Below the pieces are notes generated by a model. It was not told the origin of the DNA. It saw only the letters and a list, made by a program, of their open reading frames with translations, and did no database searches. Shown in pieces: positions 16,077-25,323 of a DNA stretch of 26,579 bases. Source of the stretch: an uncultured Methanosarcinales archaeon. Its GTDB lineage: Archaea > Nanobdellota > Nanobdellia > Woesearchaeales > WJKL01. The stretch spans positions 1-26,579 of the forward strand of contig CAYXHN010000001.1 of NCBI GenBank assembly GCA_964464955.1. The letters run 5' to 3'. The translations under genes were made by a program, and so were the position numbers. Positions within the stretch are counted from its first letter, which is position 1. Every line of letters starts with the position of its first letter.

Positions 16077-16898
16077 TTATTCAGATGGCAGGAATAAAGC
16101 GAATTTGTAGGTCAGAGGCTTAAGCTCCATGTTCTTGTCTAAAAGCATAGTGCCTGTGGTCTTATTAAAAAGGAAGAACTGGTTGTCAGTAGTGCCTCTT
16201 TTATATTCCAGATGATCAGGCTTGTTGTCTTTTACACACTGCTCTTTGTCTTCAGAAGCATAGCATTTACGTAGGAACGTGCCAGCATCTTTTTTTAAAG
16301 ATTCAAATTCTTCTTCAATGTTTATCCTTAATCTTGTCTTGAAGTCTGGTTTTACAATATATTTCCCTATAGATGCCTGGGATATTCCGATCTCCCCTAT
16401 TTTTTTGGACATTGGAAATATAGGTGTTTCTAGATTCTCATAAGCCAATCCAAAGAGCTTATCTTCTGAGATTGAAAATTCGTATATGTCTGCTGAAAGC
16501 CCCTGCTCTGGGTATGCTGAAAGATATTTACTGAAGTAGTCTTTGAAATGCTTTTTGAGTTCCTGCTTGTATTCTGGATAGCAGGTTTCTTTTCTTATGT
16601 TCCACAGCCTATAGCCTTCGTAAAGACCGCATCCTTGAGTATAAAAGCCTCCATTTTCTGCAAGGTCAAGCAAAGCTTGTTGTGAAGCTAAACTTGCTGA
16701 CTGGTCTATATACAATAATTTATTTTCTGCTTCTTCTTTTGCATCCAGGACTTTTAATGAAAGCTCTCCTGTGAATTCAAACTTTTCCTGCTCTGGATCT
16801 ATTGCTTGTGAATAGAAGGTTGCCACAAAGAAATAAGCTAATCCTATTATAAATCCAGGGATTACTATATAGTACAGTATCATTGATCTTTTGTTCAT
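16077..16898 (-). CDS. Class III signal-peptide (pilin-like) protein
   Basis: Start moved to ATG 16898 (ATGA overlap with the upstream stop): MNKRS/MILYYIVIPGFIIGLAYFFV. Confidence 0.72.
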   Translation of the reverse strand: MNKRSMILYYIVIPGFIIGLAYFFVATFYSQAIDPEQEKFEFTGELSLKVLDAKEEAENKLLYIDQSASLASQQALLDLAENGGFYTQGCGLYEGYRLWNIRKETCYPEYKQELKKHFKDYFSKYLSAYPEQGLSADIYEFSISEDKLFGLAYENLETPIFPMSKKIGEIGISQASIGKYIVKPDFKTRLRINIEEEFESLKKDAGTFLRKCYASEDKEQCVKDNKPDHLEYKRGTTDNQFFLFNKTTGTMLLDKNMELKPLTYKFALFLPSE

Positions 16899-17422
16899 CC
16901 TGCTGCCACCGCATAATCTATTTCCGTCAATGGTACATCTAATCTTATCTCTATGATATCGTCCCCATAAGGAATGTATTGTTTTGCTCCTGAACAAAGT
17001 TTAAGTTTGTTTGAACAAGAATTAAAAGGATATGATGTCTGATCTATACAAACTACGACACAATCTGAACCGTATCTTTTAAGTATTTGTTCTGTCTTTT
17101 TCTCCCATTGTTCTTCAAAATACTCGTCTGATTTTAATAGGGTGATGAGTCCAGCCATGTCTGTATAGGCTAAGTCTATGGGCTTCTCTGTCTGCATCTT
17201 GTTTAAATCTATTTTTACTGGCGTCCTTAAATAATAGTTTAACATCTGTTTTCCATCTATATCCTGTTTGAGGATATCTGCATCTTTTTCTTTGTCATCT
17301 TCTGCATCTCCGGAAAAAACAAGAAATAGAAATATAGCTATGATAAAGAAAAACATAGTTACCATCAATGGGATGAAGTCATCTATCCCTACCGCTTTTT
17401 TTGATCTAAACAGTTTATACAT
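16895..17422 (-). CDS. Class III signal-peptide (pilin-like) protein
   Basis: RSKKA/VGIDDFIPLMVTMFFFIIAIFLFLVF; four C-terminal Cys. Confidence 0.75.
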   Translation of the reverse strand: MYKLFRSKKAVGIDDFIPLMVTMFFFIIAIFLFLVFSGDAEDDKEKDADILKQDIDGKQMLNYYLRTPVKIDLNKMQTEKPIDLAYTDMAGLITLLKSDEYFEEQWEKKTEQILKRYGSDCVVVCIDQTSYPFNSCSNKLKLCSGAKQYIPYGDDIIEIRLDVPLTEIDYAVAAG

Positions 17423-17879
17423 TTTGTATATCCAAAATTAGGTTTGCTTCTGTCAGTTGGTTGTTATAAAAAACCCTTACAGGGATGTCAGGCATCCTTT
17501 TTTCTAATGTGCCTTTCCAGTTTTTTGTCTTGAGTGTTTCTTTTTTGTCTAGATATTCAAGAGTCAATGAAAATGCTGGCTGGTCTGAATCTTCTGCTAC
17601 AGCATAACATTTATCTAATGCTGGCTGGTTGAAGTTCCTTATATCTATAGTATGGGGGATTGTCCTTGCCCCATCATGATAGTTAAAGCAGGAGGATGTG
17701 AATCTTTTTGAGATGACATACCTTTCTAAGCCTTCTGGAATCTCTGCTGTATTTACTGTAAATGAACTTAGGATGTAGATGAATAATATGAACAGAGCTA
17801 CAACTACAAATCCGAAGATAGCGTAAAATGGTGCTGTGTCTCCTGCGTAAAATGCTTTTTTGTCCATCTTAAATCTCAT
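17415..17879 (-). CDS. Class III signal-peptide (pilin-like) protein
   Basis: MDKKA/FYAGDTAPFYAIFGFVVVALFILFIYIL. Confidence 0.72.
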   Translation of the reverse strand: MRFKMDKKAFYAGDTAPFYAIFGFVVVALFILFIYILSSFTVNTAEIPEGLERYVISKRFTSSCFNYHDGARTIPHTIDIRNFNQPALDKCYAVAEDSDQPAFSLTLEYLDKKETLKTKNWKGTLEKRMPDIPVRVFYNNQLTEANLILDIQNV

Positions 17880-18669
17880 TTACTGCTTTTGAAACTGCCT
17901 TGTGTATTTCTGACTTTCTAAGCTCTTCTCCAATCTTTATGCTTATTCCTGCGTTTGCTTCTGAAAGAGGATATTCCTCTGAAATTGAAGTGTGGATTGA
18001 TACTCTTTTATCTGATAATTGGTTTTGTATAAGGCAGGCAAGTCTTCTTGAGTTTGTGTTTGGAAGTAATCTTAATTCCAGTCTGATACCTTCTGCAGCC
18101 TCTTTTTTGAGATGTATCAATAATCCTGTTTCTTCAGGATATTCTTTTACCTCTGCACTATCTATGGATGCTGCTAATGCATCTGAAAGGTCTGAGATAG
18201 GTGTTATGATTATATTTCCTATCCTTCCTGCTCTTTCAGGGCATTCCTGCTTGTTTAGTTCTGATTTAAGTTCTTCTGAAACTATGATAGAATCTCCTGA
18301 TTTTTGGAGATAAAGCGAAGAAGGCCTTACAAATTCATAGTCTAAATTTTGAGGTTGCTTTTTTACAAAAAGATAGCTGCCGAAAGTTGGATCTGCTGCA
18401 TAAGAATATGCTTTTATCTTGTTTTCTTTTATGTCAATATAAAAATCTGAAGTGTTCAAAGGAAATTTAAGATAAGCATTTCCGGGCATTGTGTTCAATG
18501 CATCTAAAGTAAGAGCTGTATCCCTTGTTAGCTGTATCTTCTCAAATACTTCTCCTGTTCCGAATTGTATTCCAGCATAATAGAATATAAAGAATATGGT
18601 TATCCCTGCAACTATCTCTATAAACGGCTTTAAGGTCAATTGTCCTCTTTTTTTTAGGATGGGTTTCAT
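17869..18669 (-). CDS. Class III signal-peptide (pilin-like) protein
   Basis: LKKRG/QLTLKPFIEIVAGITIFFIFYY, a canonical archaeal cleavage motif. Confidence 0.8.
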   Translation of the reverse strand: MKPILKKRGQLTLKPFIEIVAGITIFFIFYYAGIQFGTGEVFEKIQLTRDTALTLDALNTMPGNAYLKFPLNTSDFYIDIKENKIKAYSYAADPTFGSYLFVKKQPQNLDYEFVRPSSLYLQKSGDSIIVSEELKSELNKQECPERAGRIGNIIITPISDLSDALAASIDSAEVKEYPEETGLLIHLKKEAAEGIRLELRLLPNTNSRRLACLIQNQLSDKRVSIHTSISEEYPLSEANAGISIKIGEELRKSEIHKAVSKAVNEI

Positions 18670-23797: not shown

Positions 23798-23860
23798 GTT
23801 AATATGTCATAAATCCAATGTGTTGAATTTCTGGAATACTGAAAAAAGATTATTATCTTT

Positions 23861-24835
23861 TTAGTATATTAAGGGGCAGGATTGTTTTAATAGTCTTTGA
23901 TTGTCTTCTGATATTTTGCCTGAAAAAGTATTTATTTGTGCACATAAAGATATATCAGTGCATGTTTGAAGGTGATCGGATAATGCTTCTGTATTTTTAT
24001 TGTAAAAAAAACTGCAACCGTGATCGATAGCATCAAAATATTCAGAAAGATCTGATTCTTTTCTTGCATAGATAGATGCAATAAGTTTATATTTTTCAAG
24101 AAGCTTGTTCATATTGCAGTCATAAGATTCTTTGTCTTCAGAGAATATTGCTCCCAAGGTTGTTGAAGTGTCTATTGTTGTTGAAGTTTCTTCATCTCCA
24201 TTTGAAGCATAGAAAGTTACTTTTGAATCTGAGATTGAGACTGCTGTTATCTTATCTGCATCTAATTGAGAGTATAATGCTGTTGGATTGCCATCAAAGC
24301 TTACTATTCTTTCCTGATCATGACCTTCTGAACTAAGACTGCAAGAGGAAACGCTAGTACATTTGTATTTTTCAATCTCATCTGGAATCATATCATAAAT
24401 ATCCTCATTACCTATTATTATATACCTAACAGTAGGAGAGGTAAGATAGAAAAGATTAGTTACCTTGAAAGGCTTGTTGAATGATTGTGTCCAGGTTATG
24501 AGTTTCTGGCTTTCTATCTCTGAAGGAGCAAAAATTATCTTTGTAGGAGTAGGCTTTCTTGTATTGCCTATTGAATAATATGATTCTTCTCCGTCACAGA
24601 CAAACTGCATTGCAGCAGGAGAGGTTATATCTATCTCATTGAGTGCCTGCTCTTCAAGCTGTGCTCCTGAGAGTATTGGATCCAATTGTTTTAGCAGGGT
24701 TGCTGAAAGCCTTGTCTCTGAAACATCCTTCTGCTTATAGACTATGCCTATAAAGAAAAGCAGGATTATGGCTCCTGCAATAAGTATAAATATCCAAGAG
24801 AACTGTATAGAAACCTGTGATTTTCTTACTGCCAT
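23861..24835 (-). CDS. Class III signal-peptide (pilin-like) protein
   Basis: MAVRKS/QVSIQFSWIFILIAGAIILLFFIGIV. Confidence 0.8.
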   Translation of the reverse strand: MAVRKSQVSIQFSWIFILIAGAIILLFFIGIVYKQKDVSETRLSATLLKQLDPILSGAQLEEQALNEIDITSPAAMQFVCDGEESYYSIGNTRKPTPTKIIFAPSEIESQKLITWTQSFNKPFKVTNLFYLTSPTVRYIIIGNEDIYDMIPDEIEKYKCTSVSSCSLSSEGHDQERIVSFDGNPTALYSQLDADKITAVSISDSKVTFYASNGDEETSTTIDTSTTLGAIFSEDKESYDCNMNKLLEKYKLIASIYARKESDLSEYFDAIDHGCSFFYNKNTEALSDHLQTCTDISLCAQINTFSGKISEDNQRLLKQSCPLIY

Positions 24836-25323
24836 TCTGAAACCTTTGCTTTCTTACCAAGACCTTCTACTCTTAATGTGATGCGTCCGTTGATTGGCTC
24901 TACGCAGAGATAACCATTCTCTATCTTTAGATCAGGTGTTTTTATCTTTATGTCTGCCCATGGCTCAAGCATAACATTTTGAGTTTTTGCTGTCCATGCA
25001 TCGCACATCAAGGCATTCAGTTCTGGATAATCATTTAAACAATCAGCTGTATCCTGAGGGGCAGAATCATAATCAACAAAACAAACTTTCTCATATCTGG
25101 AAGGCAGAGAAAGCTCTACTTTTCTGACAGTGCCTGTATCTGGAGCTATTGTTCTTATCTCTCTTTCGATCTCTTTCTGGAAATTGACAAGATTGACACG
25201 CTCTGTCTCTCCAAGAAAGCCTGCTATAGCTCTATATCCATAAAGAAATATAAGTCCTGCTAAGACTATTGCCAGGATGTAGATAAATATCTGCTGAGCC
25301 TGGGCTTTTTTTGAGGATTTCAT
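24826..25323 (-). CDS. Class III signal-peptide (pilin-like) protein
   Basis: MKSSKKA/QAQQIFIYILAIVLAGLIFLYGY. Confidence 0.8.
   Translation of the reverse strand: MKSSKKAQAQQIFIYILAIVLAGLIFLYGYRAIAGFLGETERVNLVNFQKEIEREIRTIAPDTGTVRKVELSLPSRYEKVCFVDYDSAPQDTADCLNDYPELNALMCDAWTAKTQNVMLEPWADIKIKTPDLKIENGYLCVEPINGRITLRVEGLGKKAKVSEWQ

Follow-up and report, generated by a model that had tools for sequence, protein, structure and literature searches.

The 26,579-nucleotide contig CAYXHN010000001.1 (called the window here) is the whole of contig C1 in the genome of an uncultured archaeon, a genome of 1.09 Mb in 135 contigs that is 89% complete. At positions 16077-25323 it carries a run of 15 consecutive minus-strand genes, numbered g01 to g15 in the direction of transcription and encoding 42-328 amino acids (aa) each. 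All 15 products start with a signal of the type IV pilin kind, and in public records they are labelled hypothetical. Together with a giant membrane protein encoded just upstream they are, in the reading that we favour and hold to be reasonably probable, the structural cassette of a surface apparatus of the type IV filament (T4F) class.

Results

The array and its signals

In every gene of the array a short basic leader is followed by a K/R-K/R-(G/A/S) site (TKA in g03) and then by a strongly hydrophobic stretch, and the elements of the type IV pilin signal, namely a positive leader, a small residue at position -1 and a hydrophobic stretch of about 20 aa, were found in 15 of 15. The leaders are mostly 5-11 aa long and reach 23 aa in g05 and g10. 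Gln occupies position +1 in six of the products, and the number of Cys per protein runs from 0 to 16. The preliminary description of this DNA had listed the same 15 genes with class III (type IV pilin-like) signals, and all of them exist as described, with two starts corrected: g15 most likely begins at 16898, in an ATGA overlap with g14, rather than at the TTG at 16997, and g09 begins at 20949 rather than 21015. It had the genes mostly coupled by ATGA or short overlaps; of the 15 junctions (the one with the upstream giant gene counted), nine overlap by 4-11 nucleotides and the rest are gaps of 10-218 nucleotides. TTTATATA-like (TATA-like) boxes lie upstream of g05, g06 and g10 and suggest that the array is made up of several sub-operons. 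The two 23-aa leaders (g05, 22666-22735; g10, 19884-19952) both contain FCRLGI before SKKA, and the leaders of orthologues elsewhere are 3-8 aa long.

The clustering of these signals was compared with chance by scanning all open reading frames (ORFs) of at least 40 aa in the 1.09-Mb genome for the motif plus hydrophobicity. The scan returned 65 matches, 16 of them on contig C1, where 14 are array genes; the 15th array gene passes at a slightly lower threshold. The density of matches is 1.6 per kb in the array against roughly 0.05 per kb elsewhere, about 30 times the background, and about 0.5 such genes would be expected by chance in 9 kb. Contigs C49, C50 and C61 encode three more large proteins (582, 641 and 704 aa) with a K-(K/R)-G-Q start and a hydrophobic helix (KKGQLTIFIILG and similar), which points to further class III-like surface proteins in the genome outside the cassette; C49 additionally encodes a protein of 1754 aa.

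Predicted folds

AlphaFold2 models based on family alignments were made for two of the 15 proteins, g02 and g04. In the model of g02 (pLDDT 91.9, pTM 0.86) residues 6-58 form a helix, which precedes a beta-rich domain and, at the C-terminus, a four-helix bundle; in that of g04 (pLDDT 84.8) residues 3-56 are helical and the head is alpha/beta. Type IV pilins have as their hallmark an N-terminal helix that protrudes and spans about 53 residues, and in both models the helix protrudes and has about this length, in line with the combination of a helix of about 50 residues and a beta-rich head by which pilins are recognised. Among AlphaFold DB clusters, g04 matched models labelled as PilX N-terminal domain (E 2e-5 and 5e-3), and further matches carried the labels DUF4320, type II secretion system protein, TadE, archaeal type IV pilin N-terminal domain and flagellin. 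In g02 it was the N-terminal half that matched a model, labelled 'class III signal peptide-containing protein'. The assignment of the array proteins as type IV pilin-like is supported by the predicted folds of the two modelled products and by the signal in all 15.

Conservation and gene order in relatives

Of the 151 genomes sampled from the order, 130 have a homologue of g02, almost always a single one, and a 40-sequence profile run on 301 genomes, a phylum-level sample spanning the order and its class, detected g02 in 270. The relatives in public records carry the names Candidatus Woesearchaeota or Nanoarchaeia. Gene order was compared at the loci of 12 relatives, making 13 loci with the window. 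The locus starts with one or two giant surface proteins (900-2000 aa, with Ig-like, PKD and TSP3 repeats), which are followed by g01, g02, g03 and g04; next come a mini gene of about 50 aa, proteins of about 300 and 280 aa, a second mini gene and a variable protein; the locus ends with two to four tandem g05-family pilins of about 90 aa, members of four or five other families and a large terminal protein of the g15 type. The comparison of gene order that had been proposed as a check therefore found it kept in relatives, with the exception that L018, L023 and L027, three of the 12, diverge after g04.

Judged from these gene orders and counts, the cassette is ancestral to and conserved across the Woesearchaeota/Nanoarchaeia, mostly single-copy and syntenic. 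This replaces the earlier picture of a special expansion in one host-dependent archaeon, as the conservation extends over the whole class. The soluble domains, taken at first to be unrelated to one another, are instead fast-evolving members of conserved families. Many of the public metagenome-assembled genomes that carry the cassette are titled 'uncultured Methanosarcinales archaeon' (L052, L056, L059 and others); these titles look like mislabels, because L056 is the same contig as G103:C1, from a genome of the window's own order.

The signal itself is regular across the 128 cassette proteins of the 13 loci, with K/R at position -2 in 92%, A, G or S at position -1 in 55%, 31% and 13%, respectively, and Q at position +1 in 45%. 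Several polar residues after the predicted cut are invariant, namely Q+1 in g01, Q+1 and E+6 in g03, and Q+1, E+3 and G+6 in g04, and such positions are more in keeping with a recognised motif for processing and assembly than with a simple membrane anchor. The giant protein that lies directly upstream of g01 in the relatives with g01 is 900-2000 aa long; its Sec signal and large ectodomain are followed by one C-terminal transmembrane (TM) helix and a charged tail, 130-340 aa in length. The g05 family (consensus KKAQGLSLNVIIVAAIALIVL) has a highly conserved helix and a tiny disulfide-rich head ending in CC, occurs in two to four tandem copies in relatives, and looks like a shaft (major) subunit.

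Peptidoglycan hydrolase heads

An exhaustive HMMER search with g12 returned 192 representative clusters, whose common part is the N-terminal ~135 aa and whose longer members have a variable head added to it. When 72 longer members were scanned, Amidase_3 was matched in 17 (best E 3e-19) and Peptidase_M15_4 in one. The members that match Amidase_3 have kept the motif IDPGHGG; at this place g12 of the window and its close relatives have IIITPISD or similar. Since the motif is replaced in this way and g12 here, like its close relatives, has no Pfam match, and no DPGHGG with the Zn-binding His, its head is probably a degenerate and inactive amidase-like domain. In the ESM Atlas g12 matched unnamed Woesearchaeota clusters only, and a word-indexed homologue search gave one relative.

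Two g15 orthologues (L017 and L026) carry Peptidase_M23 (E 1e-16 and 6e-21), and two others have weak 3D or SLT matches at the same insert. The g15 of the window aligns to orthologue residues 2-150 and 291-408 only, so that the whole insert with its M23 domain is missing and the C-terminal ~290 aa are gone. Neither an M23 nor an Amidase_3 domain was found in a genome-wide search. By these domain matches the cassette often mounts bacterial-wall hydrolases on pilin-like stalks, and these have been lost in the present lineage. The amidase and M23 heads in relatives suggest contact with bacterial cell walls.

Assembly machinery elsewhere in the genome

The preliminary description had found no assembly machinery in the window, and its interpretation depended on a class III peptidase and a type IV pilus (T4P) ATPase being present elsewhere in the genome. 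Pfam searches of the larger ORFs (80 aa or more) of the window outside the array likewise gave no T2SSE ATPase, T2SSF platform protein or A24 peptidase, and an A24 peptidase, T4P-type ATPases and platform proteins were all found on other contigs. The single A24 prepilin peptidase (C21:12093-12947, Peptidase_A24 E 2e-13) has the catalytic D22 and the GGGD (GxGD) motif, and one A24 peptidase each was present in five of five complete relatives checked. Contig C67 carries a canonical Epd-like engine, consisting of a 550-aa T2SSE ATPase and two T2SSF/TadC genes. On contig C41 a 755-aa T2SSE ATPase with an N-terminal extension of about 400 aa precedes a protein of 726 aa, for which eight hydrophobic segments (about seven TM helices) are predicted. 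A T2SSE ATPase with a platform is present in the genome in the C67 set, and also in the C41 pair, where the similarity to TadC is weak and colinear. A third T2SSE match was rejected, being a PIN/KH-domain ATPase unrelated to pili.

The 755-aa ATPase was found in 151 of 151 genomes of the order at 52-78% identity, and its gene adjoins that of the 726-aa protein in 12 of 15 relatives and lies at most three genes away in a 13th. The two TadC proteins align with successive halves of the 726-aa family, the first with the N-terminal half (hhalign probability 82%, E 1e-5) and the second with the C-terminal half (E 1e-3), and with moderate confidence we take the protein to be a fused two-repeat platform protein; a search of PDB sequences with the family profile found nothing. 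Six complete or near-complete relatives (G025, G098, G108, G043, G045 and G144) have no canonical PilB-like ATPase and all keep g02; in G025, the one that was inspected, there is no canonical TadC and the whole cassette is kept. As far as the searched sequences go, the 755/726 pair is the only candidate engine in those six genomes. In three of four relatives with the canonical engine (G085, G016 and G034) it adjoins pilins of its own, which belong to a different family, found on contig C60 here (KKAQAAMEFLMTYGW). Since this C60-type family also persists in some genomes lacking the canonical engine, the pilin sets are not cleanly partitioned between the two engines. The 755-aa ATPase with its 726-aa platform is most likely the engine that serves the cassette.

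The surroundings of the 755/726 pair (L029:4359-10318) include an upstream 51-aa RHH-like gene, divergent genes for a 133-aa coiled-coil protein and a 243-aa protein, and a downstream 131-aa protein; these neighbours recur in most of the 15 relatives and may be regulatory or cytoplasmic partners of the engine. In G072, G076, G079 and G122 the ~755-aa ATPase match lies inside frames of 1255-1801 aa, split into two blocks in G122, which looks like intein insertions in the ATPase gene.

Parts of the cassette and its neighbourhood

The products and their neighbours are listed in Table 1. Only the last 419 aa of the giant protein lie in the window, because the contig ends there and cuts off the 5' end of the gene; the stop of this gene overlaps the start of g01. 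The positional counterparts of g08 in relatives have an amphipathic tail in common, and most end in F or FG(R). Among the other ORFs of at least 80 aa on the contig, Pfam identified glycosyltransferases, RadB, uS2, ThpR, RadA, YdjM and RPA. The products of the glycosylation-type block might glycosylate surface proteins.

Table 1. Features of the window; an arrow marks the predicted cut in the signal.
Feature	Position	Strand	Remarks
Giant surface protein, C-terminal 419 aa	25320..26579	-	Pfam TSP3_bac E 3e-9; TSP3 calcium-binding repeats, one TM helix, Lys/Glu-rich cytoplasmic tail of ~270 aa
g01, core pilin-like protein 1, 165 aa	24826-25323	-	SKKA↓QAQQIFIY; orthologues at the same position in 10/12 relatives; Q+1 invariant
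g02, core pilin-like protein 2, 324 aa	23861-24835	-	VRKS↓Q; largest core member; C-terminal helical bundle; no Pfam or PDB match
g03, core pilin-like protein 3, 157 aa	23324-23797	-	TTKA↓QVKMFET; orthologues in 12/12 relatives; Q7 and E12 invariant
g04, core pilin-like protein 4, 162 aa	22839-23327	-	KKRS↓QTEIIG; Q6, E8 and G11 invariant
g05, small pilin, 109 aa, candidate major subunit	22406-22735	-	SKKA↓Q after 23-aa leader; tiny Cys-rich head ending in CC
g06, mini-pilin-like peptide, 42 aa	22059-22187	-	KRG/KKA; mini genes of 42-61 aa recur there in relatives
g07, pilin-like, 328 aa, 16 Cys	21083-22069	-	HKKG↓F; sits where the paired ~300-aa family sits in relatives; weak Defensin_beta_2, E 0.0034
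g08, mini-pilin-like peptide, 46 aa	20946-21086	-	TKKA↓D; ATGA overlaps at both ends
g09, pilin-like, 313 aa, 14 Cys	20008-20949	-	NKKA↓L and hydrophobic helix; by position second of the ~300-aa pair
g10, small pilin-like, 121 aa	19587-19952	-	SKKA↓A after 23-aa leader; TSP3-like motif (weak TSP_3 match); N-terminus aligns with g05 family
g11, pilin-like, 297 aa, 16 Cys	18683-19576	-	SKKA↓I and helix; no Pfam match
g12, pilin-like N-module with probably degenerate Amidase_3-like head, 266 aa	17869-18669	-	KKRG↓Q
g13, pilin-like, 154 aa	17415-17879	-	DKKA↓F and helix; by position the conserved ~170-aa family of relatives
g14, pilin-like, 175 aa	16895-17422	-	SKKA↓V and helix; by position the conserved ~170-aa family of relatives
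g15, shortened terminal pilin-like, 273 aa	16077-16898	-	NKRS↓M; orthologues 670-760 aa
RPA	14960-16009		DNA-repair/single-stranded DNA gene beside the cassette
SSB-like, 94 aa	13557-13841		DNA-repair/single-stranded DNA gene beside the cassette
RadA	12391-13488		DNA-repair/single-stranded DNA gene beside the cassette
ORF, 465 aa	10937-12334		Between radA and thpR; no Pfam match
RadB	8557-9261		DNA-repair/single-stranded DNA gene beside the cassette
Glycosylation-type block	965-8516		One GT1, two paralogous membrane GT2, two paralogous ~470-500-aa membrane proteins without Pfam match

Discussion

The proposed apparatus

If the 15 genes and the giant protein do encode a T4F-class apparatus, the N-terminal helix would insert each product into the membrane, the single A24 peptidase would cut after the K/R-(G/A/S) site, and the ATPase/platform engine encoded elsewhere would extract the mature subunits and polymerise them. 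The products of g01-g04 with the giant calcium-binding, adhesin-like protein may be the counterpart of bacterial minor pilins with PilY1 and serve as a priming or tip module. The shaft would consist of pilins of the g05 type, possibly together with the mini-pilins of about 45 aa, and the other Cys-rich proteins would be on display as accessory heads. The preliminary description had spoken of a minor-pilin or tip cassette; a large structural cassette without an engine is indeed what the locus resembles, and beyond minor pilins it holds putative major pilins of the g05 type and the ~45-aa mini-pilins, with hydrolase-headed proteins in relatives. The filament so formed may serve in host attachment, as had also been proposed, and this function and filament formation alike are what we infer from the parts.

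Several observations weigh against such an apparatus. None of the 15 proteins matched a pilin family in Pfam, and the only matches, all weak, were to DUF6056, Defensin_beta_2 and TSP_3. The structural check suggested at the outset, which did bring out the pilin-like helix of g02 and g04 and the pilin-labelled AlphaFold DB models, matched no solved pilin: PDB searches with the two models gave nothing at E ≤1e-3 in Foldseek, and the best VIA-align matches (Z ≤8.5) were generic helix bundles for g02 and PAS/Cache-like domains for g04. The predicted complex of mature g01, g03 and g04 with g02 scored 0.68, and 0.76 when an unrelated protein replaced g01, and is counted neither for nor against the apparatus. 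The cassette never adjoins either engine, so that the engine is assigned by elimination, and the platform assignment of the 726-aa family is a matter of weak profile matches, with T2SSF matched by three of 14 members at E about 0.02. Near-universal single-copy conservation would also suit a housekeeping envelope structure, as opposed to a host-contact organelle. When the locus was looked for in sequencing runs, it was met in a DNA run of a microbial-mat metagenome only and in no RNA run.

Alternative explanations

It is conservation of this kind, expected of a housekeeping structure, that makes a serious rival of an envelope scaffold, in which the proteins would be membrane-anchored components and not an extended pilus: a short pseudopilus, a bindosome-like layer, or the scaffold of an S-layer-like coat made of the giant proteins. 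The class-wide, mostly single-copy and syntenic occurrence, the C-terminal TM anchor of the giant proteins, as found in archaeal S-layer proteins, and the glycosyltransferase genes on the same contig are all in keeping with such housekeeping architecture, and the Sulfolobus bindosome sets a precedent for class III signals on non-filament surface proteins (PMC13705601). The g05 family is however shaft-like, with its tiny head, tandem duplication and highly conserved helix, the four-gene core beside a giant adhesin mirrors minor-pilin/PilY1 modules, the hydrolase heads of relatives suggest action on the wall of another cell, and no substrate-binding domains or ABC transporters are linked to the locus; we therefore give the scaffold a real but minor chance. 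Somewhat harder to sustain is the view that the Epd-like 'system 1' engine on C67 uses the cassette proteins as its pilins, in an Epd-type adhesion pilus whose repertoire of pilins would be unusually large. The Gln at +1 in six of the 15 array proteins, and in 45% of cassette proteins, is typical of EppA/Epd substrates, the genome does have a system-1-like engine with two platform genes, and a 2026 survey, in which DPANN T4F genes were found to be scattered, assigned most of the pilins to Epd-like system 1 (PMC13705601). Against this stand the six near-complete relatives that keep g02 without an Epd-like ATPase (no co-loss; G025 combines absence of TadC with a full cassette), the C60-type pilins beside the canonical engine in G085, G016 and G034, and the class III signal and DUF361 Pfam models, which match no cassette protein and gave no match at E up to 1 in the 15 array proteins. 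With no model match, Gln at +1 in only six of 15 and independence of the system-1 engine, the cassette falls outside the Epd/DUF361 pilins, and this alternative is quite unlikely.

DNA uptake had been proposed at the outset, and a competence-type pseudopilus working with the products of the neighbouring genes for RPA, an SSB-like protein, RadA and RadB was weighed too. Many nucleotide biosynthesis genes are missing in DPANN archaea, which counts in favour of uptake; RPA lies directly after g15 in the window and follows the cassette in L017, L022 and L025, and the SSB-like gene, RadA and RadB are within 8 kb. This linkage to RPA is nevertheless seen in four of 13 loci only, RPA and RadA are universal housekeeping genes, and giant adhesins or wall hydrolase heads are not features of competence pili. 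Searches of the 89%-complete genome for ComEC and DprA found neither, so that uptake is down-weighted, the neighbourhood of RPA, SSB and RadA lends it weak support, and we regard it as very improbable. No greater credence is due to the last alternative, a cluster of type II membrane proteins with ordinary uncleaved signal anchors and no relation to type IV filaments. It would explain why neither Pfam pilin models nor solved pilin structures match, and why the sites of g13, g14 and g15 are separated from the hydrophobic core by 5-8 polar or mixed residues. It would leave unexplained the K/R-K/R-(G/A/S) site, with Q+1 in 45%, immediately before the helix in 128 proteins of 13 genomes, the invariant Q and E positions of g01, g03 and g04, the modelled protruding helices of 53 residues, as opposed to TM anchors of 20 residues, and the intact A24 peptidase here and in five relatives checked.

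Relation to known systems

Among known T4F systems the favoured structural cassette resembles the Epd pili of Methanococcus maripaludis (system 1), in which likewise a multi-gene pilin locus includes several minor pilins, leaders are short and basic with Gln at +1, and the major pilin has a tiny head or none at all. It differs in its 15-20 pilin-like genes against about five for Epd, in having no ATPase, platform or peptidase in the locus and no class III signal/DUF361 match, in being retained in genomes that have no system-1 engine, and in including giant TM-anchored calcium-binding proteins and, in relatives, hydrolase-headed pilins. The four small, strictly conserved and translationally coupled pilin-like genes beside a very large calcium-binding surface protein recall FimU-PilVWX-PilY1 of type IVa pili and GspH-I-J-K of the type II secretion system; g02, about twice the size of the other core members and with an added helical domain, is reminiscent of GspK, and the g04 model matches PilX_N-labelled models. 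The likeness to these bacterial minor-pilin modules is one of gene order and size pattern, with no detectable sequence homology and in an archaeon without outer membrane, and the giant protein, unlike the secreted PilY1, belongs to the type I membrane proteins and has a cytoplasmic tail.

Subclade 4F of archaeal T4P was described by Makarova, Koonin and Albers in 2016 as having ATPases with a variable N-terminal extension and often an associated S-layer-like protein (PMC4858521). The 755-aa ATPase with its ~400-aa N-terminal extension is like these by description and differs in being paired with a single fused platform of ~726 aa. With the Sulfolobus bindosome (Bas) and other functional surface proteins that bear class III signals the cassette shares the use of class III signals that mount enzymatic or binding heads on a T4F base, but it has no solute-binding domains or ABC transporter, and the heads in relatives are peptidoglycan hydrolases. 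The MoxR/vWA 'novel secretion system' of Makarova 2015 (PMC5898192) was rejected as unrelated. Makarova et al. 2019 reported DPANN dark-matter islands with putative pilins beside FlaI and TadC (PMC6393860), and in the 2016 work no cognate pilins could be identified for the nanoarchaeal ATPase (PMC4858521). No description of such an ordered cassette was found in the literature searched, and our verdict on the locus is that of a real, unannotated type IV filament structural cassette.

Significance

Woesearchaeota are abundant, uncultured and thought to be host-dependent. With its 15-20 pilin-like genes and giant adhesins in an order kept class-wide, the cassette fills a gap left by the published surveys and offers concrete targets for antibodies, cryo-electron tomography, proteomics and heterologous cleavage assays. 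A further proposal, which we put forward as tentative and on balance doubtful, is that the cassette and the ~755-aa ATPase with its fused platform form a distinct, unclassified T4F system that defines the Woesearchaeota/Nanoarchaeia, a contact organelle with giant calcium-dependent adhesins and, in most lineages, peptidoglycan-cutting heads that is 'disarmed' in the present genome. Were this true, many Woesearchaeota/Nanoarchaeia would attach to and breach bacteria rather than archaea. The peptidoglycan hydrolase heads of the relatives are a testable clue to bacterial partners, and the loss of both heads in this genome suggests lineage-specific changes in lifestyle.

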